Positions 3,865-41,990 are shown, counted from the stretch's first letter. The stretch: 64,000 nt of DNA from an uncultured Enterobacterales bacterium (GCA_964519895.1 CAZFLE010000015.1:2073-66072); one strand, 5' to 3'. The notes: a model not told the origin generated them from the letters alone. Made by a program: numbers and translations.

Positions 3865-4122
3865 CCCCAGATGACCTCGGCGGGGGCGCTGCGCCCAGGC
3901 CGTGAGCGTCAGGCCGCGGTCCTGGGCTGGCGTCGGTTTCTTGCGGGCTCGATCACGCCGCCCAGACAGTCCAACGCGACAACCCAACCCAGAGTCATGC
4001 CCCAGGGTCAGAACCAATCACAATCCCGATCCATCCCGGCGAGGCTAATGCTTAACAAAAGGTTCCCGACCCCGGTTCCCGAGACTCCCGAGACCCCGGT
4101 TCCACGACCCGCTGGCCTCCAG

Positions 4123-4286
4123 CTAGTCCCCTGTCTCACAAGTTCGTGAGGTGATCGCGCAGCCATCGCCGTGGCTGGTGGTCTGCTCGAGCGGCCGGTG
4201 TGGCCGAGTCACATCAAAGCGAGAGCGGGCCGCCAGGCGCGGCGAGGGCAAGTGAGCGCCCACGAACTTGTGAGACAGGGGACTAG
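4123..4286. mobile_element. MITE-like element, copy 1 (164 bp, perfect 26-bp terminal inverted repeats, flanked by CTAG)
   Basis: The left arm ctagtcccctgtctcacaagttcgtg is the exact reverse complement of the right arm cacgaacttgtgagacaggggactag. A gap-free colinear second copy lies at 28337-28500, and the two share an identical 27-nt core gcggccggtgtggccgagtcacatcaa. Confidence 0.7.
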
Positions 4287-4307
4287 TGGGGTGAGTCGAA
4301 CGCTCGC

Positions 4308-6629
4308 TCAGTAGTGCCGCTGGAGCACGTACCAGCCGAACGCCCTGAGCATGACCTTGGAGAGGCTGTCGTCGACCAGCGGATCGAGCTGGCGCCAGGC
4401 GTCTTCCACCAGGCCTTCGGCCTGTTCCACGCAGTCGTCGATGGCTCCGATCTCTTCCAGGCGCGCGATGACGTCGTTCACGACGGCCTGGTCCTGGGGA
4501 CAGGCACAGACCGTGTCGGCCAGCCATGCCCGATCGTCGGGGGACAGGACCCGCATCGCCTTGACCACGGGCAGGGTGATCTTGCCCTGGCGGATGTCCT
4601 CGCCGCGCTCCTTGAGGTTGCCCTTGAAGCCCCGTAGGTTCAACACGTCGTCGATGATCTGGAAGGCCAGGCCCAGGGACTCGAAGTAGCGTCCGACGCC
4701 GTCGATCTGTTCCTCGCTGCCCTTGCCGGCGATGGCGCCCATGCGCGCGAGGGCCGCGGCAGGCGCTGCGGTCTTGAGGCGGTGGATCGCCAGGACCCGC
4801 TGCTCCAGGAAGTCGATGCGACCGGTCTCCACGGCGCCGGGCACGGCGTCCATGGGCCCCAACAGGTCCAGGGCCTGGCCGGCGTGACCAGCACGGAGCG
4901 CCTCGAAGTAGAGCTCGTAGACACGCACGGTCTCGGCGCTGGAGAGGTCCGGGTTCTGCAGCAGCTGCTGGCCGATGAAGTACCCGGCTGTCCCCGAGTT
5001 GATGGCCAGGGCCTCGCCGTAGACCAGGTGACAGGCCGGTCCGCCGCGACGCCAGTCGGACTTGTCCTGCACGTCGTCGACGATCAGTGAGCCCACGTGC
5101 ATGAGCTCGGGCATCGCCAGCCACTTCACGTAGTCCCGGCTGTCGCCCCCCACGATGTCGCAGCAAGCCAGCGCCGCATAGCTGCGCCAGGCCTTGCCCC
5201 CCCGGTCGGTGATCTCGCGGAGGGGCTTCAGGTAGCCCTCGACCAGCTGGTCGTGGTCCACGCCCTCCATGAAGTGATCTCGGTGCTCCCCGGACACCAG
5301 GTCCCGCAGCGCGTTGTAGCTGGGGCGCTCGATCGGCAGGACCTTGCGGATGGAGCGCCGGACCTCGCGGGAGACCGACTTGAAGAACTTGTCCAGGGTG
5401 TCGGTCGTGAAGTACCCGCTGCGCTCCACATAGGCCTGGCCTGTGAGGCGGCGCTTGCCCCGGGTCCCCTGGACCAGACATCGCCCTTCCCAGAACGCCG
5501 GCTTGGAGATCAGCGTCACGAATTCCTGGTCTGCGAAGCACGCCTCGATCCGCAGCTCCAGGTCCGCCGCGGGCACGCTGAGCGTCCAGGCCAGCGGATA
5601 GCGGTTGAAGGTCCGGGCGCTGGTCCAGCTGTTCGGATCCGGGGTGAGCTCGAGCTCCGGGAAGCGGGTGACCGTGCCGTCCGCATCGATCAGCACGGCA
5701 CAGGCGTCGATCGGGGCCTGGCCAGCCAGGTCCTCCATGGTGTAGGCCGTGAGCTGGGAGCCGTCTTTCAGCTGGGCCGCGAGCCAGTTCCAGGCCATGT
5801 CGTCGTTGGCCACGGCCGCAGGGGGCTCGCCGGCCACCGGCGGGGCGGGATCCTGTCCCATCGCATCGGCGTCCAGGATGGAGTGGGCCCCGAACTCGTG
5901 GTCGTACCAGGCCTTTCCACCCCGGACCCGCTTGCGACGGCCGTCGAGCCACACCTGGCCGCTCACGTCACAGCGGGGCAGGAAGTAGTAGAACATGTCC
6001 TCGCCGGCCCGGCCCTTGACCACGCCGTCGGTCCCGTGGCGCACCGCCGTGCAGCGCGGGGTCAGCGTCAGGTCGACCGCGGTGCCTTCGGGTCCGTCCT
6101 TGAGCTCCAGCCGGTAGCGCCCGTCGTCGAGCTTCCAGAACCGGTTGCCCCCGAAGTCCAGGTCCAGACGGCCCTTGGAGACCAGCACCGGTGCGGCGAA
6201 GAACCGGTCCGGCTGGGGCACCTGGCCGCGCTCCAGGACCTCCTTCATCGCCTGCTGGATGCGGGGGTCCCGAGAGCCCTGACCGCGCTTGATCTTCTCC
6301 AGCCCGTGCTTGGGTGCGCTGGTGTCCACCCGGCTGTCGAACAGGTAGCGCGACCGCGCGGTGTCGCTGACGGCCCAGGTCAGGCTGTGGGCATGGATCG
6401 GGGCCTTGGTGTCCGGGTGCTCCCCGCTGAGGATGCGGAAGAACGACGCGAACACGCCCACCGTTCGACCCCGGCCGAGGTCCAGGTGGCCGTTGAGGTA
6501 CCACCACTCGGTTGTGGAGGAGGCATGGGGCAGATCCTGCACCGCCAGGTCGATGGGACCTGGGCCGGGCCAGTCGACGGGTGCGTCCACCAGACGGATC
6601 GCCGTCGGCCCGAAGGCGTTCTCTCCCAC
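4308..6629 (-). CDS. Fusion protein: N-terminal CrtC/AttH-like lipocalin (carotenoid hydratase-like) domain plus C-terminal polyprenyl diphosphate synthase
   Basis: 773 aa. The N-terminal half has the TEWWYLNGHL motif and beta-rich architecture typical of AttH/CrtC. The C-terminal half has prenyl synthase Asp-rich motifs LIVDDVQDKSDWRRG and FQIIDDVLN. Confidence 0.75.
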   Translation of the reverse strand: MGENAFGPTAIRLVDAPVDWPGPGPIDLAVQDLPHASSTTEWWYLNGHLDLGRGRTVGVFASFFRILSGEHPDTKAPIHAHSLTWAVSDTARSRYLFDSRVDTSAPKHGLEKIKRGQGSRDPRIQQAMKEVLERGQVPQPDRFFAAPVLVSKGRLDLDFGGNRFWKLDDGRYRLELKDGPEGTAVDLTLTPRCTAVRHGTDGVVKGRAGEDMFYYFLPRCDVSGQVWLDGRRKRVRGGKAWYDHEFGAHSILDADAMGQDPAPPVAGEPPAAVANDDMAWNWLAAQLKDGSQLTAYTMEDLAGQAPIDACAVLIDADGTVTRFPELELTPDPNSWTSARTFNRYPLAWTLSVPAADLELRIEACFADQEFVTLISKPAFWEGRCLVQGTRGKRRLTGQAYVERSGYFTTDTLDKFFKSVSREVRRSIRKVLPIERPSYNALRDLVSGEHRDHFMEGVDHDQLVEGYLKPLREITDRGGKAWRSYAALACCDIVGGDSRDYVKWLAMPELMHVGSLIVDDVQDKSDWRRGGPACHLVYGEALAINSGTAGYFIGQQLLQNPDLSSAETVRVYELYFEALRAGHAGQALDLLGPMDAVPGAVETGRIDFLEQRVLAIHRLKTAAPAAALARMGAIAGKGSEEQIDGVGRYFESLGLAFQIIDDVLNLRGFKGNLKERGEDIRQGKITLPVVKAMRVLSPDDRAWLADTVCACPQDQAVVNDVIARLEEIGAIDDCVEQAEGLVEDAWRQLDPLVDDSLSKVMLRAFGWYVLQRHY

Positions 6630-9759: not shown

Positions 9760-10194
9760 ATGAAGAGCATGAACGAGGTGTTTCTCCTGGGCCACGTGGG
9801 CCGGGATCCCGAGGTGAGCAAGACCCGCAGCGGCAAGGACCGTGCGACCTTCAGCCTGGCCACCAGCTACAGCATTCGCGCCGACGACGGCTGGGACGAA
9901 CGCACGGACTGGCACAAGGTGGTGGTGTTCGACTGGCTGGCCAAGCGAGTCGAAGAGCGCCTGCGCAAGGGCGATCCGGTCATGGTGCGTGGCCGCATGA
10001 GCAGCCACAAGTGGACCGACGACAACGGGCAGGCCCGGGTGTCCTGGAGCGTCGTGGCGCGCGAGGTCAGCTTCTTGCGCTCCCGCCGCGACGGCGAGCA
10101 CCGAGACCTGGGCATGGGGCCGGCCCCCGGCTCGGTGGCGATGCCGCCTCAGGCGCCGGGGGAGGTGCAGCCAGACGACGACATTCCCTTCTAG
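9760..10194 (+). CDS. ssb: Single-stranded DNA-binding protein
   Basis: OB-fold N-terminus (NEVFLLGHVGRDPE, WHKVVVF), a Gly/Pro-rich linker, and the acidic tail DDDIPF. Confidence 0.9.
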   Translation: MKSMNEVFLLGHVGRDPEVSKTRSGKDRATFSLATSYSIRADDGWDERTDWHKVVVFDWLAKRVEERLRKGDPVMVRGRMSSHKWTDDNGQARVSWSVVAREVSFLRSRRDGEHRDLGMGPAPGSVAMPPQAPGEVQPDDDIPF

Positions 10195-15880: not shown

Positions 15881-15955
15881 GGGCGATTAACTCAGTGGGA
15901 GAGTGCTACCTTCACACGGTAGAAGTCACTGGTTCAAATCCAGTATCGCCCACCA
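15881..15955 (+). tRNA. tRNA-Val (anticodon CAC), CCA encoded
   Basis: A full cloverleaf was folded by hand. Acceptor stem gggcgat/atcgccc. D stem actc/gagt. Anticodon stem ctacc/ggtag with loop ttCACac. T stem actgg/ccagt with loop ttcaaat. Discriminator a, then CCA. Confidence 0.9.
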
Positions 15956-17426
15956 TTTTCGACACCTCTGGGGCTCCGGCCCCGAGGATGTCGAAGACAA
16001 CTGAAGTTTCGGCGGTTCCAAACGACTCGCCGTCGTGGGTGAGCCCGGTCGGGAACACCAGCCGCTGAAGGTGGATGCGGGCCTTGGGATGCAGGTCCGT
16101 CCACAGCGCGGCCGGCTTCGACAGCAGGCGCTCGGCGAACCCGAGCAGGGCGTCCACGTCGAGCTGGTCGTCCTGGGCCTGGTGAAGCTCGATGCGGACC
16201 GCTGCGATGTCGGCGTCCAGCTCGGCCTGCTTCGCCCGGCAGGCCTCCTCGCTGATGACGCGGTCGAGGTACGCATCCACAACCTGCCCTCGGCGTCGCT
16301 CCAGGTCCTGCAGCCGTTTGTGGAGGGCGGCCTCGGCCGCACCGGCGTCCTGGCGACGAGTCCGCCACACGTCGAGGATGACCTCGCGGAACAGCCGCAC
16401 GTACTCGACCCTCGGTGACGCCCGGCACAGCAGCTCCACGAAGGCCTCCTCCATCCGCTCCTTGGGCAGGGACACGCAGCCACTCCGGCGGCACCTGTAG
16501 TAGCCGAAGCGGCCGTTGCGTCCGCGGGAGAAGCTCCCAGTGACCGGCAGATCGTGGTGTGCGCAGCGCACGAAGCGTCGCAGTGGAAAGTCCGGGTGGT
16601 CCAGGAGGTGCGGCGGGGACTTCGGCCCCTTGCGCGTCAGGACGTGCTGAACGGCATCCCAGAGCGCCTCGTCCACGAGCGGATCGAAGTCGCCCTCGAC
16701 GTCGATGGCCCACCTGGGCTCGACGATGCGGCCCTTGTAGATCGGGTTGCCCAGCATGTTGCGAAAAGTCTGGGCGCTCACAGCGTTGCCTCGCCGGGTC
16801 GTCAGGCCGAGGGCGTTCACGTGCCTGCGGACCGCGGCTTGCGAGCGGTGGCCGGTGGCGTACATCTCGAAAGCCAGCCGAACCAGCGGGGCGCGATCGG
16901 AATCAGCAACCAAGCTGGCTCCCGCCCCCGTCCGGGGCTTGGTATACCCGACGGGCGGCTGGTGGGGCCATCGGCCGCGCGCGACCGCGGCCTTCATGCC
17001 GTTGAGCGCCCGCTCCGAGCGCACGTCGTTGTCGAACTGGGCGACCAGGGCCAACATGCCTTCGAGGAACCGGCCTGGTGCGTCATCCTCCAGGTGCTCG
17101 GTCGCCGACCGTAGTTCGATGCCGAGGGTACGCAGTCCGCCGCGCAGCATGTGGTAGTCGCCGACGTTCCGGGAGAACCGGTCCACCTTGTACACGACCA
17201 CGTAGTCGACCTCGGCCTTCCGGTCGGCGCACACTCGCAGCAGCCGGTGGAGCTGGGTCCGGTCCGCCGTCTTGGCGGACTCGCCGCGCTCCTCGAAGAC
17301 CTCCATGACCTGGAGACCGTTGCGCCGGCAGTAGTCGCGGCAGGCGTCGAGCTGGGTCGCCAGGCTCAGGTTCGAGACCTGCTCCTTGGTAGAGACACGA
17401 CAGTAGACGAGGGCGTTGAGGGGCAC
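15912..17426 (-). CDS. Large serine recombinase (integrase)
   Basis: 504 aa. It has a resolvase catalytic N-terminus ALVYCRVSTKEQ, VYKVDRFSRN, a recombinase domain, the Cys-rich zinc ribbon CAHH..YYRCRRSGC, and a coiled coil. The last 14 codons are antisense to tRNA-Val positions 32-75. Confidence 0.9.
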   Translation of the reverse strand: MPLNALVYCRVSTKEQVSNLSLATQLDACRDYCRRNGLQVMEVFEERGESAKTADRTQLHRLLRVCADRKAEVDYVVVYKVDRFSRNVGDYHMLRGGLRTLGIELRSATEHLEDDAPGRFLEGMLALVAQFDNDVRSERALNGMKAAVARGRWPHQPPVGYTKPRTGAGASLVADSDRAPLVRLAFEMYATGHRSQAAVRRHVNALGLTTRRGNAVSAQTFRNMLGNPIYKGRIVEPRWAIDVEGDFDPLVDEALWDAVQHVLTRKGPKSPPHLLDHPDFPLRRFVRCAHHDLPVTGSFSRGRNGRFGYYRCRRSGCVSLPKERMEEAFVELLCRASPRVEYVRLFREVILDVWRTRRQDAGAAEAALHKRLQDLERRRGQVVDAYLDRVISEEACRAKQAELDADIAAVRIELHQAQDDQLDVDALLGFAERLLSKPAALWTDLHPKARIHLQRLVFPTGLTHDGESFGTAETSVVFDILGAGAPEVSKMVGDTGFEPVTSTV

Positions 17427-17656
17427 GGCGGTCTACGGTCCATTGCCGTCGAAGCCACGGCCGCGTCCACGAGGACACGGGCGACGGCGTACATGGCCGC
17501 ACGCAGCTCGGCGAGCTGTCGGGGGGTCAGCTCGGCGGAGCCACGCAGCTCGCTGAATCGTTCGAGGGAGAGCACGGCGGGGGCCTGCTCGCGTCGGGTG
17601 GACGCGGGTTGACCGACCGCTCGGGCTCATCCCGTGGCGCTCAGGGGGCTGCATGG

Positions 17657-18625: not shown

Positions 18626-19489
18626 TCAGGGCCCGGCCCGTTGGGGCTCCGGCATCCGCGCGAGCGCAGCCAGCCCGAGAGACGCCAGGGTCACACACGA
18701 CAGGGCAGTCAGCCAGGCGTTCCCCAGGACCCAGGCGGCCAACGTCGCCCCGGTCTCGCGCCAGACGATGTAGCCAGCCATGACCAGAACGAAGACGCCG
18801 AACCCGCGGCGAAGCGCCCCCTCGGGGACCCTGGACGCGAGCTTCGCACCAGCAAGCGCACCGACGACGGCGCCGGCGGTGACTGCGGCGGCAAGCTCGA
18901 AGTCGACCGACACATCAGCCGCGTGACCTGCAAACGCCGCGAACGACTTCAGCGCGATCACGAGCAGCGAGGTGCCGATCGCCCTGTGCATGTCCATTCC
19001 GCCAAGGAGAACCAGTGCCGGGACCACCAGGAAGCCGCCACCGGCACCGACCAGCCCGGTGGCGGCTCCCACGATGAGACCCTCGACGATAACCAGCGTC
19101 ACCGGCAGCGACCCGCCCTCCGACCGCCGCGCCGGCGTGCCGCGCCCGCGGAACATCCCGACAGCGGTCGCCACCATCATGGCGGCGAAGAGCAAGAGCA
19201 GCGTGGACCCGCTGAACCAGCCCGCCGCCCGGCCGCCGAGGTAGGCGCCAGCCATCGCCGTGGCGCCGAACAGCAACCCCGTGCGCCACGCGACGTTGCC
19301 CGAGCGTGCATGGGGCACGAGCGCGAAGGCTGAGGTCGTCCCAACGATCAGGAGGGACGTGGCGATGGCCTCGCGGGGCTCCAAGCCCACGGCGTAGGTC
19401 AGGATGGGGACCGCCAGGATCGACCCGCCACCGCCGAGGAGCCCGAGGGCGAGGCCGATGAGAACGGAGAGTGCAACAGCGAGCGCCAC
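18626..19489 (-). CDS. TauE/SafE (TSUP, DUF81) sulfite exporter family permease, copy 1
   Basis: 287 aa, polytopic, with repeated GGGGS/GAGGGF motifs. The GTG start is preceded by GGGAGG. Confidence 0.85.
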   Translation of the reverse strand: MALAVALSVLIGLALGLLGGGGSILAVPILTYAVGLEPREAIATSLLIVGTTSAFALVPHARSGNVAWRTGLLFGATAMAGAYLGGRAAGWFSGSTLLLLFAAMMVATAVGMFRGRGTPARRSEGGSLPVTLVIVEGLIVGAATGLVGAGGGFLVVPALVLLGGMDMHRAIGTSLLVIALKSFAAFAGHAADVSVDFELAAAVTAGAVVGALAGAKLASRVPEGALRRGFGVFVLVMAGYIVWRETGATLAAWVLGNAWLTALSCVTLASLGLAALARMPEPQRAGP

Positions 19490-19491
19490 GG

Positions 19492-19950
19492 CTACCTCCC
19501 CGCTTCAGCGGCGGCGGTGCGAGCGACGCGAGTCGCGGCGAAGCCGTCCAGGAAGTGAACCAGCAACATCCCACCGAGCATGGCTGCGACAAACGTGATC
19601 GCCTTGGGTCCGCCCGGCAGCGCTGAGACCACCGCAGGGCCGGGACAGTAGCCAGCCAGGCCCCACCCCACTCCGAAGAGGGCGGCGCCACCAACCAGCC
19701 GGCCATCGATGTCCCGCCTCGTCGGCCGGCTGAAGGACGTCGAGCACAGCGGCGCTGTTCGATGGTCGATGACCCGACGCAGAGGGGTGTGCACGAGGAG
19801 TGCCCCGACCATCACGACGCCGAGGCTGGGGTCCCACGGGCCAAGCAGGTCCAGGAAACCGACGACCACGTCCGGACGGGTCATCCCCGACACGACGAGG
19901 CCGGCGCCGAAGACCAGCCCGGAGAGAGCCGCTGTGATGAGACCCTTCAC
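19492..19950 (-). CDS. YeeE/YedE (sulfur transport, DUF395) half-protein B, copy 1
   Basis: Its GTG start overlaps the upstream stop (GTGA). It carries the [11 protein letters not shown] motif. Confidence 0.75.
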   Translation of the reverse strand: MKGLITAALSGLVFGAGLVVSGMTRPDVVVGFLDLLGPWDPSLGVVMVGALLVHTPLRRVIDHRTAPLCSTSFSRPTRRDIDGRLVGGAALFGVGWGLAGYCPGPAVVSALPGGPKAITFVAAMLGGMLLVHFLDGFAATRVARTAAAEAGR

Positions 19951-20378
19951 AGCGCACCTCCGAGCACATGGTTGACCGCGAAGGCACTGGCGGCGCCGGT
20001 GCCCATGAACGTCAGGACGCTGGTGAGCGACCGGGGTGACATCCGAGCCAAGCCACACACGCCGTGCCCGCTCGTGCAGCCGTTTCCGAGCCGGGTGCCA
20101 GCCCCGACGAGCAGCCCCGCGACAATGAGAGCGCCGGTGGACCGGGAGAGCGGATTCACGAATGCGTCCGGGACGACCGGGACGAGCAACAGCCCCGCGA
20201 GCACCAACCCGACAACGAAGGCCGCGCGCCAGTGGCGCTCTTGGGTCCGACGCTGAAGCAGCCCGCCGACGATGCCGCTGATCCCGGCGATGCGACCGTT
20301 GAACAGGAGGTACGAGGATGCCGCCAGCCCGATGAGCATCCCGCCGACGAGGGGAGGGAGGAGTGACTGCAGGGTCAT
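19947..20378 (-). CDS. YeeE/YedE (sulfur transport, DUF395) half-protein A, copy 1
   Basis: Its ATG at 20378 overlaps the pdo stop (ATGA). It carries the [12 protein letters not shown] motif. Confidence 0.75.
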   Translation of the reverse strand: MTLQSLLPPLVGGMLIGLAASSYLLFNGRIAGISGIVGGLLQRRTQERHWRAAFVVGLVLAGLLLVPVVPDAFVNPLSRSTGALIVAGLLVGAGTRLGNGCTSGHGVCGLARMSPRSLTSVLTFMGTGAASAFAVNHVLGGAL

Positions 20379-21433
20379 CGTGCTTCTCCTTCGACGGAGG
20401 CCCGGACGACAGGCAGGCCCCGATCGGTCCAGGCCTGCATCCCGCCTGAGACGGAAGCGATCTGGGAGAAGCCACTCGTGCGAAGCCTCTGAGCCGCCTC
20501 GGCCGACCGCCGGCCCGAGTGGCAGATCAACGCGATCCGGTCGTCGGTCGACCACTCGCTCGCGGCGTCAGCGAGCTTGCCGAGGGGGACGCGCTGGGCG
20601 TCAGGCGCGCACCCGAGCGGCCCACAGCACTCCGCGGGCTCGCGGATGTCGATCAGCCGGACGCGGGCCGCGTTCGCGGCGATCCACACGGGGTCGACCT
20701 CCGGGATGCCGGCACCAGTGAGGACGATGGGAAGGCCCGTCGCAGTCGCCCCACACGCCCGGTTGGCCGGCAGGGCGACGTCGATGCGCTTGGGGTACGG
20801 AAGGCCCAGGCCATTCATCAGCGCGATGAAGTCGCCCTCGGAGCGACCATGTCCGAGCCTGGCGTTGTGCCGCTTCTCGTCGCCGACGGTGCTGACGGTG
20901 CGGCCCTTGTAGTCGTGGCCGGGGTAGACGCGGGTGGCGTCCGGCAGCGTGAAGATCTGCTCGTGGACGCGGCGGTAGAGCGTCCTCGCGTCGCCCTCCT
21001 GGAAGTCGGTCCGGCCGCACCCGCCGATCAGCAAGGCATCGCCGGTGAACACCATCGTCTCGTCGAGCGTGACGAAGCTCACGCAGCCCGCGGTGTGGCC
21101 CGGCGTGGCCCGCACCTGCAGGCCGTAGCCGCCGAAGCGGACCACCTCGCCGTGGCCGACGGCCTGGTCGGAGCAGCTGACCCCGGCGGCCTCGCTAACC
21201 ACGGCGAGGCAGCCCAGCCGGTCCCGTAAGGCCGAGGCGCCGGTCACGTGGTCGGCGTGGACGTGGGTGTCGAGAGTGCACACCAGTCGGACCCCAAGGC
21301 TGTCGACGAGCGCAGCGTCCCGGTCGACCTGTTCCAGCACGGGATCGATGATGACTGCCTCACGGCTCTCGGGGTCGGCGAGGAGGTAGGTGAAGGTGGA
21401 CGTGTCCGGGTCGAACAACTGTCGGAAGATCAT
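20375..21433 (-). CDS. Persulfide dioxygenase (MBL fold, ETHE1-like) fused to a rhodanese domain, copy 1
   Basis: The start was trimmed to MIFRQLF to match copy 2. It has the THVHADHV metal motif and a C-terminal rhodanese domain with the active-site loop CHSGRRS. Confidence 0.85.
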   Translation of the reverse strand: MIFRQLFDPDTSTFTYLLADPESREAVIIDPVLEQVDRDAALVDSLGVRLVCTLDTHVHADHVTGASALRDRLGCLAVVSEAAGVSCSDQAVGHGEVVRFGGYGLQVRATPGHTAGCVSFVTLDETMVFTGDALLIGGCGRTDFQEGDARTLYRRVHEQIFTLPDATRVYPGHDYKGRTVSTVGDEKRHNARLGHGRSEGDFIALMNGLGLPYPKRIDVALPANRACGATATGLPIVLTGAGIPEVDPVWIAANAARVRLIDIREPAECCGPLGCAPDAQRVPLGKLADAASEWSTDDRIALICHSGRRSAEAAQRLRTSGFSQIASVSGGMQAWTDRGLPVVRASVEGEAR

Positions 21434-21468
21434 GGCAGAGCCCTCGGAGTGAGACAGCTTGGACAAGA

Positions 21469-21483
21469 GCAACGGGCGTGCCA
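21469..21483 (-). promoter_or_regulatory. Sigma-54 promoter (-24/-12) of sulfur module 1
   Basis: The minus strand reads TGGCACgcccgTTGC, an exact match to the TGGCAC-N5-TTGC consensus. It lies about 35 nt upstream of the pdo ATG. Confidence 0.75.
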
Positions 21484-21554
21484 ACCCCCCGCGGCACGTA
21501 TTTCCGCAGACTTAGGTGGTTGCCTCCAGGCCTCGTATTTCATAGTGTCTCGAC

Positions 21555-22505
21555 ATGACGAAACAACATCGTCCAAAGACTCGGACGTTCCACGGCATGG
21601 TGACCGCCTCGCGGCAGATGGAGCGGCTGTTCGAGCTGGTAGGACGCGTCGCCGAGTCTGGCTCCTCCGTGCTGATCCGGGGGGAGACCGGCACGGGCAA
21701 AGAGCTGGTGGCGCGCGCCATCCACTCCTTGAGCCCTCGGCGGGACGCGACGTTCCGAGCAGTGAACTGCGCAACGCTCACGCCCGAGCTGCTTGCGTCG
21801 GAGCTGTTCGGGCACCGCCGGGGCGCCTTCACCGGAGCTGTACAGGACCGGCCCGGTCTCTTCGCTCTGGCCAATGGCGGCACGCTGTTCTTGGACGAGA
21901 TCGCCGAGATCCCGCTGGACATCCAGGGGCGCCTCCTCCGGGTCCTTCAGGAGCGCTCCTTCGTGCCTGTCGGCGGGACCGATCCAGTCCAGGTCGACGT
22001 GCGCGTCCTCGCGGCCACGCACCGTGCGCTGAGACGCGAGGTCGAGGCCGGGCGCTTCCGGGCCGACCTGATGTACCGGATCCGCGTCGTGCCGCTCTTC
22101 CTCCCGCGTCTGGTCGAGCGCTCCGGCGACATCGAAGCGCTGGCGTGGCACTTCATCGACGAGTTCAACGTCCGCGGGTTCCGCCAGGTCGAGCGCCTCG
22201 CCGCCGAGACCCTCGACCTGATGCACGCTCACGCCTGGCCGGGCAACGTCCGCGAGCTGCGCAACGTCATCGAGCACGCCTTCGTGATGGGAACCGGACC
22301 CGACCTGTTGCCGGGTGACCTGACGCCCGAGCTTCGCGGAGAGCCCCCGCCTGGAGACCCCGCCGACCGGACGGAAGAGAGCGCCGAGCGGGACCGCATC
22401 CTCACCGCGCTGAACCGCGCCCGAGGCCACAAGGGCAAGGCCGCCGAGTACCTCGGGTGGAGCCGGTCGACCCTGTGGCGAAAGATGCGCGAGCAACGAC
22501 TGTAG
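21555..22505 (+). CDS. Sigma-54-dependent transcriptional activator lacking an N-terminal sensory domain, copy 1
   Basis: 316 aa. The AAA+ core starts about 12 aa from the N-terminus ([27 protein letters not shown]). It has a C-terminal Fis-type HTH ([21 protein letters not shown]). Confidence 0.9.
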
Positions 22506-22520
22506 GGCGGCGCTGGACGC

Positions 22521-22961
22521 TCACCAGACCGACAGCAGGTCGTCGAGGGCGCGCTGCTCCGCCGCGTCCCGTGTCCAGGTCTCCAGGCCCGTCAAGACCG
22601 GCCCGTCACGCTTCGGCAGGCCGGCCCGGTCGAGGATGGCGCAGGCAGCGCGGATGCGGGCGCCGGTCTGGACCGAGCTGTCGGCGACGACGCCACGGAG
22701 GAATCGCATCGACTCCAAGGCAGCCGCGCCCACCTCCTCGCGGACCGCCGCCAGGCGCTCGGCTCGCCGGCGCCTCAGCTCCTCTTGAACCGCCGCGACC
22801 TGGAGCCAACGCCAACAGGTGGCTCGATGGACACCCAGCTCCGCCGCCACCTCGGGCACCGTCTTCCCGGCGAGGAGGTGGTCTACAAACAGGTCGTGGC
22901 GGGGCTCAAGCTGGCCCACTTGCACTCCAGTCTGGCCACTCCCCTGCCTGGTGTAAATCAA
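22521..22961 (-). CDS. Hypothetical HTH DNA-binding protein (phage/element-type)
   Basis: LLAGKTVPEVAAELGVHRATCWRWL is a clear HTH. The start codon is uncertain (TTG at 22961 or an internal GTG). Confidence 0.45.
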   Translation of the reverse strand: MIYTRQGSGQTGVQVGQLEPRHDLFVDHLLAGKTVPEVAAELGVHRATCWRWLQVAAVQEELRRRRAERLAAVREEVGAAALESMRFLRGVVADSSVQTGARIRAACAILDRAGLPKRDGPVLTGLETWTRDAAEQRALDDLLSVW

Positions 22962-23080
22962 GCAGTGCAGTCCTCCCAGGCGGGCACAATGGCCTCATGA
23001 GGCCCTCCCAGAGCCCCGTATCTGCTGCTCAACGATGGAAAGCCGCAAGTTCTCGACCTCCGAGAGCCACCCCCACACCC

Positions 23081-23187: not shown

Positions 23188-23598
23188 CTACTCCGGTAGC
23201 ACGCGGAGAGCCGGGCAGTGTCTGGGCGCGACCGTCCGCATGTGTCGGTGGTCCAGACTGATGACCACGTCCGTGCCAAGACGCTCAGCGAGGGCAATGA
23301 CTGATGCGTCCGTGCCTCCGAGCGGGAAGGACGCGTACTGCTCCACCAACTCGGCCATCCTCGAGAGATCCTCGGGCCTCGGCCCCTCGACGTCAAAGTC
23401 CGACAGTCCCCGCAAGAACTCCGCTTCCACCCTCGCTCCCATTCGCGAACCGATGAGGTAGGTCGCCTCGGCGACGACCATCGCCGGGATGAGCAATCGC
23501 AGTCCGGGCGTCCGGAGCGCAGCGACGCAGGCTTCGTGATCCGCGTCGTCGGCGTCGACCGCCGCATACAGCGGACCCGTGTCAACGATCGCCAGCAC
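23188..23598 (-). CDS. vapC: PIN-domain toxin VapC (module 1)
   Basis: LAIVDTGPLYAAVDADD at the N-terminus, GGTDASVIALAE, and the C-terminal SLDHRH match the PIN acidic residues. The GTG start was chosen 17 nt inside the antitoxin gene. Confidence 0.75.
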   Translation of the reverse strand: MLAIVDTGPLYAAVDADDADHEACVAALRTPGLRLLIPAMVVAEATYLIGSRMGARVEAEFLRGLSDFDVEGPRPEDLSRMAELVEQYASFPLGGTDASVIALAERLGTDVVISLDHRHMRTVAPRHCPALRVLPE

Positions 23599-23824
23599 CG
23601 GTCCACTCCCGCGCGAGGATCTCTTCGGCTTTCCGGGCGGTGTGGCGCTGCCCGCTGCGCCCGATTCCGGCGAAGGGGAGGGCGCGAGGTTCCTCGTCGT
23701 CGAGACCGAGGGCGGCGGACAGAGCCCGGCGAACGACATCGGAGACCGACGTACCTGCGCGCTCCGCCCGACGCGCGAGGACGACGGCCATCTCTTCCGG
23801 CAGCGAAATGGTGATGCGATGCAT
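23582..23824 (-). CDS. Ribbon-helix-helix (CopG-like) antitoxin
   Basis: 80 aa. MHRITISLPEEMAVVLARRAERAGTSVSDVVRRAL is a canonical RHH. An AT-rich direct repeat (agtatgaagtatg, read on the minus strand at about 23821-23833) spans the start codon and the first few upstream bases. Confidence 0.75.
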   Translation of the reverse strand: MHRITISLPEEMAVVLARRAERAGTSVSDVVRRALSAALGLDDEEPRALPFAGIGRSGQRHTARKAEEILAREWTGAGDR

Positions 23825-24039: not shown

Positions 24040-24131
24040 CGCGTCCTTGTCTGGCGCGACCATGCTGGACGTTCGAACTCTGGCCCGCCTGGCACTGAGC
24101 ACGGAACTTCACTATCGGTTAAGATTCGTGC

Positions 24132-24680
24132 ATGGGGGCAACCGGACCATCGTGGGACCAACTGTACGAACATGCCGTCGCCCAGGCCGGGTATTTCACC
24201 ACCGCGCAGGCAGCGGAGGCCGGCTACTCGTCGCCACTGCTGCACAAGTACCTCGCCAACGGCAAGGTCATGCGCATCCGTCGCGGCGTGTACCGGCTGG
24301 CACACTTCCCGGCGGGCGACGACGAGGATCTGGTGGTGCTCTGGCTCTGGAGCGACCGCGAAGGCGTGTTCAGCCACGAGACCGCGCTGGTCCGCCACGA
24401 GCTGTCCGATCTGCTGCCGCACGACGCCGAGATGACGGTGCCGCCATCGTGGCGGCGTCGACGGCTGCGGGTCCCCATGGGGCTGCACCTCCACTTCGCG
24501 CCCGTCCCCGCAGGCGAGCGCACCTGGTATGGCGCCGTGCCGATCACGACCGCCGCCCGCACCATTCGGGACTGCCGAGCCGCAGGTGTGTCGCCGGAGT
24601 TCGTTGACCAGGCCATTCGGCAGGGCGTTGGGCGAGGGCTGTTCACGGAGGGCGAGGTTGGCAACGGGGGCAGGTCGTGA
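24132..24680 (+). CDS. AbiEi-family antitoxin / transcriptional regulator (type IV TA)
   Basis: GYFTTAQAAEAGYSSPLLHKYLANGKVMRIRRGVYRL matches the AbiEi N-terminal winged-helix pattern. It overlaps the toxin gene by 4 nt. Confidence 0.8.
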   Translation: MGATGPSWDQLYEHAVAQAGYFTTAQAAEAGYSSPLLHKYLANGKVMRIRRGVYRLAHFPAGDDEDLVVLWLWSDREGVFSHETALVRHELSDLLPHDAEMTVPPSWRRRRLRVPMGLHLHFAPVPAGERTWYGAVPITTAARTIRDCRAAGVSPEFVDQAIRQGVGRGLFTEGEVGNGGRS

Positions 24681-25579
24681 AGCGCTACGCCACGCCGCTC
24701 GCCTTCAAGGAGGCGCTCGAAGCCCGGCTCCGGGCGGCGTCTCGGTCTGGCGGCCAGGAGCAGAACCGGCTGCGGATGCGCCTGCTGATGGACCGTTTCG
24801 CCGCGCGCGTGGTCCATGAGTACGGCGAGCACGTCGTGCTCAAGGGCGGCGTCGTACTCGAGCTCCGCCTGTCAGAGGCCCGTGCGACCAAGGATCTCGA
24901 CCTTCGTCTGGTCGGCGACCCCGATGCCACCCTCACCAGGCTCCAACGCGCCGGCAGAGAGAACCTCGGGGATCACCTGGCGTTCGAGGTCGGGCCCGAC
25001 CCTCGCCACCCCACGATCGAGTCGGAGGGCATGCAATACCAGGGGCTCAGGTTCCGCGTTCAGGCCCGGCTCGCCGCCAAGGTCTACGGTGGCCCCTTCG
25101 GGGTCGACGCCGCCTTTGCGGAGCCTTTGGTGGGCGACCCCGAGCTGCTGCGTGGCTCCGAGTTCCTCGCCTTCGCCGGGGTCGAGCCGCCGACCCTCCT
25201 AGTCTACCCGCTGGAGGCGCACATCGCAGAGAAGCTGCACGCCTACACGCTGCCCCGCTCGCGTCCGAATTCCCGGGTGAAGGACCTGCCCGACCTTGCG
25301 CTGCTCGCCAGGGTCCGGCCCATTGATGCCGTCACGCTGCGGGACGCTCTCGATAGGACCTTCGCGCATCGAGCGGTTCACACGGTCCCCACCGAGGTAC
25401 CCGACCCGCCCGAGGCATGGCGAGTGCCGTACGCACGGTTGGCTCGTCGGGACCGCCTGCCGTGGATCGACCTCGCCGCGGTGGCCGAAACGACCCGAGC
25501 CTTCCTCGACCCCGTACTCTCCGGCGGTGGGGGGCTCTGGAGTCCCAGCGCCTGGCGGTGGGAGGCCGAAGAGCCCTGA
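24677..25579 (+). CDS. AbiEii/AbiGii nucleotidyltransferase toxin (DUF1814)
   Basis: 300 aa with the VLKGGVVLELRL..ATKDLDL nucleotidyltransferase motif and family-typical length. Confidence 0.85.
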   Translation: MKRYATPLAFKEALEARLRAASRSGGQEQNRLRMRLLMDRFAARVVHEYGEHVVLKGGVVLELRLSEARATKDLDLRLVGDPDATLTRLQRAGRENLGDHLAFEVGPDPRHPTIESEGMQYQGLRFRVQARLAAKVYGGPFGVDAAFAEPLVGDPELLRGSEFLAFAGVEPPTLLVYPLEAHIAEKLHAYTLPRSRPNSRVKDLPDLALLARVRPIDAVTLRDALDRTFAHRAVHTVPTEVPDPPEAWRVPYARLARRDRLPWIDLAAVAETTRAFLDPVLSGGGGLWSPSAWRWEAEEP

Positions 25580-27467: not shown

Positions 27468-28334
27468 TCACCTGGGCGCCGGGTGCTCCCGTTCCGGCGC
27501 CCGGGCGAGCGCACCCAGTCCGAGGGCCGCCAGGACCACGCCCCACAGACCGGCGATCCACCGGTTGTCGACCACCCAGGCGGCCGCAGACGCCCCGGTC
27601 TCCCGCCAGACGATGAAGCCGGCCATCGCCAGGACGAAGACCCCGAACCCACGACGGAGCGACGCTCCCGGGACCCTGGACGCGAGCTGGGCACCCGCCA
27701 GCGCGCCCAGCACGGCCCCGGCGGTGACCGCACCGGCCAGCGCCAGGTCGACGGGCACATCGACCGCGTGGCCCGCATAGGCCGCAAAGGACTTCAGGGC
27801 GATCACGAGCAACGAGGTTCCGATGGCCCGGTGCATGTCCATGCCCCCGAGCAGGACCAGCGCCGGCACCACCAGGAAGCCCCCGCCGGCGCCCACCAGC
27901 CCTGTCGCCGCTCCGACCCCCAAGCCCTCGGCGACCACCAAGGCCACTGGCGGGGACCCGGCCCAGGGCCCCGGGGCCGCCGAGCTGCGGCCTCGGAACA
28001 TGCCCAGGGCGGTGGCGACCATCATGGCGGCGAACAGCAGGAGCAGCGTCGATCCGCTGAACCACCCGGCCGCCCGGCCGCCGAGGTAGCCCCCGGCCAT
28101 CGCCGTGGCCCCGAACAAGAGCCCCGTGCGCCAGGCCACGTTGCCCGCCCGCGCATGGGGCCAGAGCGCAAAGGCCGACGTGGTCCCGACGATCAGCAAG
28201 GACGTGGCGATGGCCTCGCGCGGCTCCAGACCCACGGCATAGGTCAGGATCGGCACCGCGAGGATCGACCCACCACCGCCCATCAGGCCAAGGGCGAGGC
28301 CGATGAGCACGGAGAGCGCCACGGCGATCCACAC
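27468..28334 (-). CDS. TauE/SafE (TSUP) sulfite exporter family permease, copy 2
   Basis: Colinear with copy 1. A GTG at 28334 (or 28322) was chosen because the track ORF start at 28379 lies inside the inserted repeat element. Confidence 0.8.
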   Translation of the reverse strand: MWIAVALSVLIGLALGLMGGGGSILAVPILTYAVGLEPREAIATSLLIVGTTSAFALWPHARAGNVAWRTGLLFGATAMAGGYLGGRAAGWFSGSTLLLLFAAMMVATALGMFRGRSSAAPGPWAGSPPVALVVAEGLGVGAATGLVGAGGGFLVVPALVLLGGMDMHRAIGTSLLVIALKSFAAYAGHAVDVPVDLALAGAVTAGAVLGALAGAQLASRVPGASLRRGFGVFVLAMAGFIVWRETGASAAAWVVDNRWIAGLWGVVLAALGLGALARAPEREHPAPR

Positions 28335-28336
28335 GG

Positions 28337-28500
28337 CTATTCCCCTGTCGCAGAAGTTCGCGAGGCACTCGCGAAGCAATCGTCGCGCCTGGTGGATTCC
28401 AGACGCGGCCGGTGTGGCCGAGTCACATCAACGCGGCTGGGAGCCGCCAGGCGCGACGAGGGCGAGCGAGTGTCCGTGAACTTCTGCGACATGGGACTAG
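28337..28500. mobile_element. MITE-like element, copy 2, inserted in the yeeE-B/tauE junction of sulfur module 2
   Basis: 164 bp, gap-free colinear with copy 1. The arms are ctattcccctgtcgcagaagttcgcg and cgtgaacttctgcgacatgggactag (23 of 26 pair). It is flanked by CTA(T)/CTA(G). The paralogous junction in module 1 (19487-19492) has no insert. Confidence 0.7.
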
Positions 28501-28955
28501 TGCCGCCGCTCAGGAGAGGCGACGCGGGCCAGGGGTCTCCCGGCGAGGGCGTCCACGCGGTGCACCAGCACCATGCCGGCCAACATGGCGGCCAGGAAGG
28601 TGAGCGCCTTGGGGCCGCCCGGCAGGGCAGAGACCACCGCAGGGCCCGGACAGTAGCCAGCCAGACCCCAGCCCACGCCAAAGAGGGCGGCGCCCACGAC
28701 CAGGCGGGCGTCGAGGTCCCGCCGGGTCGGCATCCTGAAGGCGTCGGAGCACAGGGGCGACCGCCGGCGTTCGATCAACCAGCGCAGCGGGGCGTGCACG
28801 AGCAGGGCCCCGACCATCACGACCCCCAGGCTCGGGTCCCAGGTGCCGAGGACGTCCAAGAAGCCGACGACCACGTCGGGGCGGGTCATCCCCGACACCA
28901 CGAGGCCGATGCCAAAGACCAGGCCCGAGGCGGCTGCGGTGATCAGTCCCCTCAC
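28497..28955 (-). CDS. YeeE/YedE half-protein B, copy 2
   Basis: GTGA start overlap as in copy 1, with the [11 protein letters not shown] motif. Its TAG stop lies in the terminal CTAG of the inserted element. Confidence 0.75.
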
Positions 28956-29383
28956 AGCCCACCTCCCAGCCACTGGCTGACCGCGGTGGCGCTGGCCGCG
29001 CCGGTGGCCATGAAGGTGAGCACGCTGACCAGCGAGCGCGGGGAGCTCCGAGCCAGCCCACACACGCCGTGCCCGCTGGTGCAGCCGTTCCCGAGCCGAG
29101 TGCCAGCGCCCACCAGCATCCCCGCGACGACGAGAGCGGCGGTGGACCGAGAGAGCGGATTCACGAAGGCCTCGGGAGCGGCAGGGGCGAGCAACAGTCC
29201 CGCCCCACTCAGCCCGATCACGAACGCGCCCTGGAGATGGCGGTCCCCAGTGCGACGCTGGAGCAGCCCGCCGACGATGCCGCTGATCCCAGCGACGCGA
29301 CCGTTGAACAACAGGTAGCCGGACGCCGCCAAGCCGATGAGCATCCCGCCCACGAGCGGCGGGAGGAGCGCTTGAATGGTCAT
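28952..29383 (-). CDS. YeeE/YedE half-protein A, copy 2
   Basis: ATGA overlap with the pdo stop, with the [12 protein letters not shown] motif. Confidence 0.75.
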
Positions 29384-30438
29384 CGTGTGGCTCCGTCGCT
29401 GGACACCCGCACCACTGGGAGGCCAAGGGCGGTCCAGGCGGCCATGCCGCCTTCCACGGACGCGACCTGGGCCAAGCCACGGGCCCGGAGCCCCAAGGCG
29501 GCGTCGCCCGAACGCCGGCCCGAGTGGCAGACCAGGGCGACCCGAGCGTCGCTCGACCACGCGCCCGCGGCCTCGCCGAGCTCGCCAAGGGGGACCCGCA
29601 AGGCGTTGGGAATGCACCCCAGCGGTCCGCAGCACTCGACCGGCTCGCGAATGTCGACCACCTGAAGCCGCGCCGGGTTCGCCGCCACCCACTGGGGGTC
29701 GACCTCGGGGATGCCGCCGCGGCTCATGACGATGGGAAGGCCCGTCGCAGGCACCCCGCACGCCCGGTTCGCGGGCAGCGCGACGTCGATGCGCCTGGGG
29801 TAGGGAAGCCCTAGCCCGTTCATCAAGCGGATGAAGTCAGCCTCGGGGCGTCCCTGCCCGAGCCGGGCATTGTGTTGCTTCTCGACGCCCACGGTGCTGA
29901 CCGTGCGGCCCCTGTAGTCGTGGCCGGGGTACACCCGGGTGGCGTCCGGAAGCGTGAAGATCTGCTCGTGCACGGAGCGGTAGAGGGTGCTCGCGTCGCC
30001 CTCCTGGAAGTCCGTGCGTCCGCAGCCGCCGATCAGCAGGGCGTCCCCGGTGAAGACCATGGCCTGGTCCAGGGTGACGAAGCTCACGCAGCCCGCGGTG
30101 TGACCCGGCGTGGCCCGGACCTGCAGCCCAAATCGACCGAACCGCACGACCTCGCCGTGCCCGACGGTCTGGTCGGAGCAGCTCACCCCTGCGGCCTCGC
30201 TGACCACCGCCTCGCAGCCGAGGCGGTCACGGAAAGCCGTGGCGCCGGTCACGTGATCGGCGTGCACGTGGGTGTCGAGCGTGCACACCAGGCGCAGGCC
30301 CAGCTCCTCGACCAGGGCCGCATCCCGCTCGACCTGCTCCAGCACGGGATCGATGATGACCGCCTGGGCACTGACGGGATCGGCCAGGAGGTAGGTGTAG
30401 GTGGAGGTGTCCGGGTCGAACAGCTGTCGGAAGATCAT
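29380..30438 (-). CDS. Persulfide dioxygenase-rhodanese fusion, copy 2
   Basis: 352 aa starting [18 protein letters not shown], with THVHADHV and a rhodanese CHSGRRS loop. Confidence 0.85.
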
Positions 30439-30472
30439 CGGGGTGCCTGGGAGGGAGTTGGCTTCACTGTGA

Positions 30473-30487
30473 GCAACGGCCGTGCCA
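30473..30487 (-). promoter_or_regulatory. Sigma-54 promoter (-24/-12) of sulfur module 2
   Basis: The minus strand reads TGGCACggccgTTGC, an exact consensus spacing, in the same position relative to pdo as in module 1. Confidence 0.75.
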
Positions 30488-30558
30488 ACACCTTCCGCCT
30501 CGCGTTTCCAGCCACTTGGAGACCTGCCGAACCAAGAGTTGATTCATAATGTCTCAAC

Positions 30559-31509
30559 ATGAAGCAATATGATCGTCCAAGCACGCGCACATTCCACGGC
30601 ATGGTGACCGCGTCACCCCAGATGGCCCATCTCTTCGCGCTGGTGGCGCGCGTCTCCGAGCCTGATTCGTCTGTGTTGATCCGCGGAGAGACCGGCACCG
30701 GCAAGGAGCTCGTTGCCCGGGCCATTCATGCCCTGAGCCCCCGCCGGAACGCGGCCTTTCGGGCGGTCAACTGCGCCACCCTCACCCCCGAGCTGCTCGC
30801 GTCGGAGCTGTTCGGGCACCGTCGCGGCGCCTTCACCGGGGCCATCCGGGACAAGCCTGGTCTGTTCCAGCTCGCCGACGGCGGCACGCTCTTCCTGGAC
30901 GAGATCGCCGAGATCCCCTTGGACATCCAGGGGCGACTGCTGCGGGTCCTGCAGGAGCGCTCCTTCGTGCCGGTGGGCGGGACCGAGCCGGTGCAGGTCG
31001 ACGTGCGCGTGCTGGCGGCGACGCACCGAGCCCTCCGCCGCGAAGTCCAAGCCGGGCGCTTCCGGGCAGACCTGATGTACCGGGTCCGTGTGGTGCCGCT
31101 GTTTCTCCCGCGCCTGGTGGAGCGCACGGGCGACATCGAGGCCCTGGCCTGGCACTTCATCGACGACTTCAACCGGCGGGGCTTCCGGCAGGTCGACCAT
31201 CTGGCGCCAGAGACCCTGGACCTGCTCCACGCCCACCCGTGGCCGGGCAACGTGCGCGAGCTCCGGAACGTCATCGAGCACGCCTTCGTGATGGGCACGG
31301 GCCCCGACCTGGTGCCCGACGACCTGACGCCCGAGCTTCGCGGGGAGCCGCCGCGGGCAGACCCCGGCGCGGCGACCGCGCTCCAGGCCGAGCGGGACCG
31401 GATCCTGTCGGCGCTGAACCGCGCGCGAGGGCACAAGGGCAAGGCCGCGGAGATCCTGGGGTGCAGCCGATCGACGCTGTGGCGGAAGATGCGGGAGCAG
31501 CGGCTCTGA
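30559..31509 (+). CDS. Sigma-54-dependent transcriptional activator lacking a sensory domain, copy 2
   Basis: 316 aa, colinear with copy 1 (about 45 mismatches by hand alignment). It has GAFTGA, Walker A/B and a Fis HTH. Confidence 0.9.
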   Translation: MKQYDRPSTRTFHGMVTASPQMAHLFALVARVSEPDSSVLIRGETGTGKELVARAIHALSPRRNAAFRAVNCATLTPELLASELFGHRRGAFTGAIRDKPGLFQLADGGTLFLDEIAEIPLDIQGRLLRVLQERSFVPVGGTEPVQVDVRVLAATHRALRREVQAGRFRADLMYRVRVVPLFLPRLVERTGDIEALAWHFIDDFNRRGFRQVDHLAPETLDLLHAHPWPGNVRELRNVIEHAFVMGTGPDLVPDDLTPELRGEPPRADPGAATALQAERDRILSALNRARGHKGKAAEILGCSRSTLWRKMREQRL

Positions 31510-41969: not shown

Positions 41970-41990
41970 GGGCCCACGGTAGTCCAGGGT

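Follow-up and report, generated by a model that had tools for sequence, protein, structure and literature searches.

A 164-bp repeat in an uncultured high-GC bacterium is one copy of a small, non-coding, hairpin-shaped MITE that targets CTAG

The window analyzed here is a stretch of 64,000 nucleotides from an uncultured Enterobacterales bacterium (GCA_964519895.1 CAZFLE010000015.1:2073-66072). It contains two copies, A and B, of a 164-bp repeat. Copy A lies between convergent genes, one of which encodes a CrtC-lipocalin/polyprenyl synthetase protein. Copy B lies within an operon, with the DUF6691 gene and the TauE gene on either side, both on the minus strand. The repeat is one copy of a small non-coding MITE that targets CTAG and has the shape of a hairpin. 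The strand of the element that folds best is designated as its plus strand, and its ends read GTCCCCTGTC...GACAGGGGAC; these are the ends that a cognate transposase gene would carry. The features of the locus are as follows.

4123..4286, plus strand: copy A (A-type), C-TA-[158-bp element]-TA-G; covariance model match of 187 bits
4124..4125: left duplicated TA of copy A, from flank comparison across 18 sites
4126..4148, plus strand: left terminal inverted repeat of copy A, GTCCCCTGTCTCACAAGTTCGTG
4174..4181, plus strand: GCTGGTGG in the left arm of copy A
4191..4217, plus strand: invariant 27-nt apical core of copy A
4261..4283, plus strand: right terminal inverted repeat of copy A, the perfect complement of the left repeat
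4284..4285: right duplicated TA of copy A, from flank comparison across 18 sites
4308..6629, minus strand: CrtC-lipocalin/polyprenyl synthetase gene; TGA stop codon (4308-4310) 21 nt from copy A
19487..19507, minus strand: unoccupied paralogous junction, TGA-AGC-GGGGAGG-TA-GCC-GTG, with a single TA, in an operon 9 kb away
28332..28334, minus strand: GTG start codon of the TauE gene, 2 nt past the left C-TA of copy B
28337..28500, plus strand: copy B (B-type), 79% identical to copy A without gaps
28405..28431, plus strand: 27-nt core of copy B, the same sequence as the core of copy A
28497..28499, minus strand: TAG that terminates the DUF6691 gene (28497-29588, minus strand); on the mRNA strand it consists of the right flanking TA of copy B and the adjacent target-derived G

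The arms of copy A (4123-4148 and 4261-4286) are complementary at 26/26 positions, as the original prediction had stated. CTAG is also present at both ends, but it is counted inside these 26-nt arms and does not flank them. Both of the arm differences between the copies that had been singled out are indeed compensated: the pair of columns 14:151 is T-A in copy A but G-C in copy B, and the pair 17:148 changes from C-G in copy A to G-C in copy B. A third compensated pair is found at 25:140 (T-A versus C-G). The central 27 nt are identical and occupy the same place in both copies; they start at base 69 (offset 68), however, and not at the offset of 70 given before. This 27-mer, GCGGCCGGTGTGGCCGAGTCACATCAA, has exactly two matches in the window, 4191-4217 and 28405-28431, and its chance expectation there is 0 even at 3 mismatches. 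The rest of the interior had been described as drifted, which is too simple a description: the interior differences are largely compensated, and each copy folds over its full length into one hairpin.

This end-to-end hairpin has about 65 pairs and extends well beyond the 26-nt ends. RNA folding of the plus strand gave -131.2 kcal/mol for copy A (z -14.6 relative to shuffled sequences) and -126.8 kcal/mol for copy B (z -15.5), and the reverse strands folded more weakly (-102.8 and -102.2 kcal/mol, respectively). Within the core of copy A, an 8-bp apical stem with two G·U pairs joins 4197-4204 to 4208-4215 and is closed by a CGA loop.

Once identical loci had been merged, the family of the element comprised at least 18 distinct insertion sites, from three sources in related uncultured high-GC bacteria. 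Species-representative genomes scanned with the end pattern yielded copies in one MAG, CAYFPX01, and a metagenome scan with a 20-mer from the core gave 17 further contigs. A-type copies are 96-100% identical to copy A, and B-type copies are 78-80% identical to it; L001, L003, L007, and L014 are intermediate or mosaic, L019 and L021 have internal deletions, and solo ends are found in L009, at L001:~4468, and at L007:5467-5549. L025 and L026 are identical over all 164 nt although they lie at different loci, and copy B differs from both by one base. Several assemblies break inside the element. Identical copies at separate loci and assembly breaks within the element are marks of a recently active dispersed repeat. 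Several characters that define a MITE are present, namely terminal inverted repeats (in 14 copies), a target duplication, a length of 158 bp, the lack of a transposase gene, and dispersed near-identical copies. This is a new MITE family of an already known type of element.

Three of the fragments deserve a brief description. L007:5467-5549 consists of two tandem left ends followed by unrelated sequence, L009:3516-3590 is a right half adjoining a short inverted GTCCCCTGTCTC, and the solo right end at L001:~4468-4490 directly follows a stop codon. The contigs L001, L003, L006, L007, and L009 of MAG CAYFPX01 have a GC content of 70-73% and carry the same element family as the window; because of this GC content, the label 'uncultured Enterobacterales bacterium' of that MAG is probably wrong. 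The end-pattern matches L002, L004, L005, L008, and L010-L013 were rejected as single chance matches in unrelated low-GC genomes. A viral contig scan with a 16-mer from the mid-stem gave unspecific matches only, and L031 onward were discarded. Viral contigs scanned with the core gave no match, nor did blastn of copy A against plasmids and phages.

To describe the pairing, we used an alignment (A2) of 14 full-length copies from independent loci, which is gapless and in which the hairpin has 69 pairs. In these 14 copies, 95.2% of the pair cells were paired, versus 90.5% after shuffling and 33-42% with slid partners. Twelve pairs had changed on both sides. The covariation score was 0.179, versus 0.096 in the shuffles (reached in 0/500) and at most 0.055 in the slid controls. 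The proposal that compensatory change preserves the pairing, made from two copies, was thus borne out by the larger alignment, where covariation extends over the whole stem. Several of the covariation events are independent of each other. L007 alone has adjacent double changes in the termini, at 6:159 (C-G to G-C) and 7:158 (C-G to T-A); young A-type copies have a transversion swap from G-C to C-G at 17:148; pair 14:151 is found as G-C, as T-A, and as a T·C hybrid within the clade of the MAG; and pair 35:131 has the states GC, GU, and AU. The symmetric changes that involve several bases, among them a block of four pairs swapped at 61-66/101-106, point to occasional recopying between the arms, with one serving as the template for the other.

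The pairing is not equivalent on the two strands. On the plus strand, every one of the 14 copies has 6-8 G·T pairs, whereas A·C occurs in three cases in total, confined to two copies. G·T is seen at 13 pair positions, 10 of which are common to several copies or fixed, and A·C at 3 pair positions, each in a single copy; the shared wobble positions are thus 10:0 (binomial p = 0.002). The plus strand is favored in 14/14 copies, by 22-33 kcal/mol with RNA parameters and by 8-17 kcal/mol with DNA parameters. Four wobbles (57:110, 62:105, 76:92, and 81:87) are invariant in 14/14 copies. Column 57, which holds the T at 4179 in copy A, takes part in a T·G wobble in every one of the 14 full copies, and the distant relative L018 described below has T·G at the matching position in CTGGTGG/CCGCCAG (57:110).

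The left-arm sequence GCTGGTGG (columns 52-59), found in A-type copies and in L007, is the E. coli Chi octamer. CTGGTGG is invariant across all copies and the L018 relative, and the opposite arm reads CTGGCGG; the Chi-like motif occurs on one strand only because of the conserved T·G wobble. The octamer in the arm may be a coincidence.

Changes shared by several copies differ from those found once. Minor pair states present in at least two copies were paired in 16 cases and broken in 5, whereas the private states of single copies were paired in 4 and broken in 13 (Fisher p = 0.003). A state found in at least two copies must have existed in a copy that transposed. The contrast thus suggests that insertions decay in place while the multiplying lineages keep the fold. 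It argues against strong host-level selection at each locus, and fits either selection for mobility or slow recopying from arm to arm. Selection on the stem, as originally proposed, is in accordance with the covariation of the whole stem, but the decay of single copies places it on propagating lineages and not on each locus.

Because 11/14 aligned copies had been obtained through the core 20-mer, the invariance of the core was assessed in the five copies for which it is unbiased (A, B, L001, L003, and L007), namely those found without using the core. In these copies, 0/27 core columns vary, versus 45/129 elsewhere (p = 4e-5). Unpaired columns outside the core are variable at 10/17 positions. 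Column 96 (4218 in copy A and 28432 in copy B), which is unpaired and located just 3' of the core, shows A, C, G, and T, and thus mutation does reach the region beside the core.

A covariance model built from the family detected one distant relative, L018:123-288, which is present as a single copy in the data. Its terminal repeats (ATACCTCGTCAAGGGGG) and its apex are unlike those of the main family, and the mid-stem segments GATCGCGC-GCCATCG, CTGGTGG, GCCGCCAGG, and CGAGGGCAAGCGAG are common to both. It has CTA...CTAG flanks, lies 7 nt past the TAG stop codon (296-298) of a minus-strand gene, and forms a full-length hairpin (-127.4 versus -110.9 kcal/mol) with 5 G·T pairs and the strand asymmetry of the main family. 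The conserved internal core that had been predicted is therefore invariant within the family (0/27), but in this relative the apex is replaced and the mid-stem is kept instead; as judged from these sequences, the core is specific to the family and not universal. That ends and apex change together between two families, as seen with this single relative, would fit a role of both as specificity determinants for a cognate protein.

We compared the core with known signals. It reads CATCAA and then AGCGAGA, and the IHF consensus WATCAANNNNTTR has no match in it. A tRNA reading of the GTGGCCGAG stretch was ruled out with ARAGORN. A candidate CRP-type site, TGTGG-N5-TCACA, has the wrong spacing, and a K-turn in the mid-stem loop, a sigma-54 promoter, and an IHF site, which were also considered, do not match their consensus. 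On the minus strand of the core (4203-4217), the strand that is usual in mRNA, UUGAUGUGA contains an AUG directly followed by UGA; this is probably a coincidence because no ribosome-binding site lies upstream.

Comparison of 18 sites showed that most copies are flanked as C-TA-[G...C]-TA-G. In L001 and L017 the flanks are CCAG/CCAG, which is a direct (CA/CA) and not an inverted repeat; thus, the middle two bases are the target duplication. Three copies have CTAG...CTAC flanks, which are explained by a 2-bp duplication in a C-TA-C target, whereas under a 4-bp duplication an identical mutation would have to have arisen three times. Other left flanks are CCAG, CTGG, and CTCG, and GTAG on the opposite strand is seen in three copies only. 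The counterpart of the unoccupied paralogous junction at copy B reads ...CAC-TA-[element]-TA-GCC-GTG. The 64-kb window contains 10 CTAGs, where base composition predicts 178 and trinucleotides predict 65; three of the 10 flank the element. Two others are unoccupied potential targets: the CTAG at 10191 is made of the overlapping TAG stop codons of two convergent genes, and that at 767 contains a stop codon.

Elements of the IS630 family insert at TA, make a 2-bp duplication, and occasionally duplicate pairs other than TA (PMC2170065), and IS630 prefers the TA in CTAG (PMC2170065, citing Tenzen and Ohtsubo 1991). The duplication of TA within CTAG is the signature of IS630/Tc1-mariner elements, and the transposase of the present family would accordingly be of this type; the evidence for the assignment is the target and the duplication. 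The IS5/IS427 group also makes short duplications and may be an alternative parent group. Pfam searches of about 40 ORFs in the window gave no transposase and no Y1-transposase domain, and paired terminal repeats 1-1.5 kb apart were found neither in the window nor in any of the 23 related loci. The HTH_23 ORF at 22521-22994 was rejected as a lone protein of 146-157 aa that is not an IS630 transposase. In the exact-protein look-up for an empty allele, the 773-aa neighbor had no record; for the TauE neighbor, it led to a contig whose terminus coincides exactly with that of the element, so that all of copy B is included.

At 12/18 sites, copy B included, a well-supported gene uses the TAG of the flank as its stop codon, and since the element starts with G, this codon is rebuilt on insertion. 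Intercistronic copies are found in fliG|fliH|fliI (two, in the same orientation), DUF6691|TauE, and SurA-like|PpiC-like. In three intercistronic junctions the next start codon lies 2 nt past the flank, and thus the AGGGGA(C/A) terminus is at ribosome-binding distance, where the paralogue has GGGGAGG; in copy B the end AGGGGAA is at this distance from the GTG of the TauE gene. The flagellar operon at L020:8170-10982 (fliG, fliH, and a fliI-like ATPase gene) has copies in two consecutive junctions, where each flank is the upstream TAG stop codon.

Orientation was scored relative to a gene that runs into the element from no more than 30 nt away, which gave 16 informative sites. At 13 of them the weaker-folding strand is the one present in the mRNA, and at 3 it is the stronger-folding strand (p = 0.021). 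An orientation bias relative to neighboring genes, recommended earlier as a check, is therefore present. The L018 relative is oriented as the majority, and the transcript of the CrtC-lipocalin/polyprenyl synthetase gene next to copy A would also carry the weaker-folding strand. A cut-and-paste enzyme that acts on symmetric ends should have no preferred orientation; to account for the bias, either post-insertion selection or a connection with replication has to be assumed. Having the weaker hairpin on the sense strand could, after insertion, reduce polar effects or make the palindrome less unstable. The GC3 skew of plus and minus genes gave no replication signal (-0.127 versus -0.116, p = 0.83).

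With moderate confidence, we interpret the repeat as a non-autonomous cut-and-paste MITE, 158 bp plus the duplicated TA, which would be mobilized in trans by an IS630/Tc1-mariner-type enzyme and in which the constraint acts on propagation. This genome of about 70% GC is strongly depleted of CTAG, and the CTAGs that survive often hold TAG stop codons; given this scarcity, new copies would land at gene ends and between the genes of operons. With G as its first base and C as its last, the element restores a CTAG at each end when it inserts. An existing stop codon would be preserved, and the AGGGGAC terminus would come to lie where a ribosome-binding site is expected. In multiplying lineages, the arms would stay complementary on one strand, with G·T allowed, and the apex of 27-31 nt would stay unchanged; individual insertions would then decay freely. 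The two ends may be brought together when one strand folds back on itself, most probably in a single-stranded state of the DNA during excision or replication, and the apex may be a binding site for the transposase or for a host factor. The fold of that one strand would be what selection among element lineages maintains, and the constraint most likely acts on the propagation of the element. Two points bear on this interpretation. The contrast between shared and private changes is also expected from arm recopying over time without selection, but recopying alone does not predict the wobble asymmetry. Known IS630/Tc1 transposition uses double-stranded DNA and does not need a hairpin; thus a strand-specific fold has no established role there, which counts against the interpretation. 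We give little credence to bolder forms, in which the element is recognized or moves as a single-stranded hairpin despite the TA duplication (a hybrid of a DDE-type MITE and a REPIN/IS200-type single-strand element, with the apex as a second recognition site) or in which the plus strand is an expressed structured RNA of use to the host or to the element.

Three other explanations were weighed. The hairpin could work as RNA after being transcribed along with its neighboring genes or against them. It would then be either a structure within a 3'-UTR or between cistrons, or a small RNA in its own right, with host selection keeping stem and core; it might act as a stabilizer, as a processing site for RNase III/E, as a device for translational coupling, or through an apical loop that binds a protein or a target. 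The tolerance of G·U-type wobbles and not of A·C is a classical RNA signature, pair 35:131 follows a path from GC to GU to AU, the folds are very stable, and copies lie just after stop codons and between cistrons with a biased orientation. There is also a precedent in the Correia and ERIC elements, with effects through RNase III and RNase E (PMC2229807, PMC10969869). Against such a role, the G·U-pairing strand runs antisense to its adjoining gene at 13/16 informative sites, and this plus strand has no promoter-like site to drive it independently, no U-tract terminator, and no Rfam family. Sigma-70 promoter and intrinsic terminator scans around both copies gave no site; Rfam 15 at the gathering score gave only a tRNA in the window and nothing for the element, and at E values up to 10 over 4050-4350 the best sub-threshold matches had 12-14 bits (E at least 3.7). 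Moreover, private mutations mostly break pairs (13/17), which is unexpected under purifying selection per locus, and the apex is replaced in the L018 relative. We consider a function as RNA unlikely, and the Rfam, promoter, and terminator searches gave no positive evidence for the suggested second role as a small RNA or a host module. Nor do the stem changes by themselves set it apart from a mobile element, since compensatory change had already been described for REPINs (PMC3116915).

An explanation without structural selection would start from a near-perfect palindrome at birth, whose arms are kept alike by mutation (template switching or hairpin-templated repair); the apparent conservation of the core would then be due only to the youth of the subfamilies or to sequence exchange between them. 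One templated event produces symmetric changes of several bases more easily (6:159 with 7:158 in L007, 61-66/101-106, and 17:148), mosaics such as L014 and L003 suggest exchange between subfamilies, and older changes are compensated and recent ones are not, as this model predicts. Templated copying should nevertheless yield perfect Watson-Crick pairs with no preference between G·T and A·C, in disagreement with the 10:0 ratio of shared wobbles, the four wobbles fixed in 14/14 copies, and the T·G match of L018 at 57:110. The 27 core columns never vary, whereas the unpaired columns outside the core do (10/17), with all four bases at column 96. We therefore doubt that mutation by itself accounts for the data. 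Mobilization as single-stranded DNA by an HUH/tyrosine transposase, as for REPINs by RAYTs or for IS200/IS605 derivatives, would explain the strand-specific fold together with an orientation bias tied to replication; both the maintenance of strand-specific folding in propagating lineages and the biased orientation agree with it, and REPINs are likewise long hairpins with compensatory changes (PMC3116915). It is hard to reconcile with a direct 2-bp duplication (TA, and CA twice) abutted by long terminal inverted repeats, as REPINs and IS200/IS605 elements make no duplication. In addition, the left end has no GTAG or CGTC tag, neither arm contains a convincing short REP palindrome (by inspection, the candidate stem in columns 12-28 is lost in some copies), and no Y1-transposase domain was found among the scanned window ORFs. 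This route is accordingly very improbable.

Among known systems, the interpretation as a MITE moved in trans by an IS630/Tc1-mariner-type enzyme finds its closest parallels in RUP of Streptococcus pneumoniae and other IS630-derived MITEs, which are small and non-coding, have terminal inverted repeats and a TA duplication, and occur in many near-identical intergenic copies that are presumably mobilized in trans (PMC2229807). Unlike RUP, with which it has no sequence similarity, the present element is GC-rich and palindromic over its full length and has CTAG-at-stop targeting, a one-strand wobble asymmetry, and an invariant apex; the ends of RUP match IS630-Spn1, whereas no parent insertion sequence was found here in the window or the 23 loci. 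Correia elements (NEMIS) of Neisseria resemble it in size (about 105-155 bp), in their 26-bp inverted repeats, and in the TA duplication (PMC2229807, PMC10969869). They contain a conserved internal IHF site, are co-transcribed with their neighbors, and are folded as RNA (PMC2229807, PMC10969869); the present element differs in lacking the IHF consensus in its core and promoter-like ends, and in host and base composition. With REPINs it shares long extragenic hairpins in which two-sided compensatory changes are common, and for REPINs selection on the replicating unit has been argued and a single-stranded intermediate proposed (PMC3116915). REPINs differ in having no target duplication, and their two short REP palindromes with a tetranucleotide tag and their single-copy RAYT gene have no equivalent here (window ORFs scanned). 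IS630 and ISY100 agree in the TA target, the 2-bp duplication, the CTAG preference, and the rare non-TA duplication (PMC2170065), but they are autonomous elements of 1.1-1.4 kb with a DDE transposase, without a whole-length hairpin or a reported strand-specific constraint. ERIC and the mycobacterial MIRUs, which are imperfect palindromes or short repeats, likewise sit where genes end or in intercistronic DNA, and MIRU termini overlap neighboring stop and start codons. The effects of ERIC on mRNA depend on its orientation. Effects on mRNA have been described for ERIC at the 3' ends of genes (PMC10969869). Both differ from the present element in sequence, size, and host, and no CTAG/TA signature has been described for them.

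The family offers a bacterial MITE whose sequence alone is enough to tell three layers apart: what the machinery needs (ends and TA/CTAG), what the lineages keep (the one-strand hairpin and the apex), and what decays after insertion. It is also an example of how an element lives in a compact, CTAG-depleted, high-GC genome, at TAG stop codons and intercistronic junctions, with the stop codon and a sequence like a ribosome-binding site rebuilt. If the strand constraint did reflect a single-stranded intermediate, this would bear on the recognition of MITEs in general. In practice, such repeats break metagenome assemblies and can pass for structured RNA genes.

Some other features of the window were recorded. 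Two tandem paralogous clusters, 18626-22505 and 27468-31509, lie about 9 kb apart with 76-86% DNA identity, and each contains genes for TauE, a DUF6691-like membrane protein, a metallo-beta-lactamase/rhodanese protein, and a divergent sigma-54 activator; the element is in the second cluster (27468-31509) only. A large serine recombinase gene (15912-17432, minus strand) overlaps the 3' end of a tRNA-Val gene (15881-15955). Farther downstream, up to about 27000, are a MerR-like gene, an AbiEi/AbiEii pair (24123-25579), and an ArsR gene, as well as a PIN/ribbon-helix-helix-like pair (~23188-23824). The region from 15881 to about 27000 looks like an integrated island containing the sulfur clusters. 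A minus-strand gene at 40587-41990 encodes repeated FG-GAP domains and contains a 5-copy DNA repeat with a spacing of roughly 175-370 nt.
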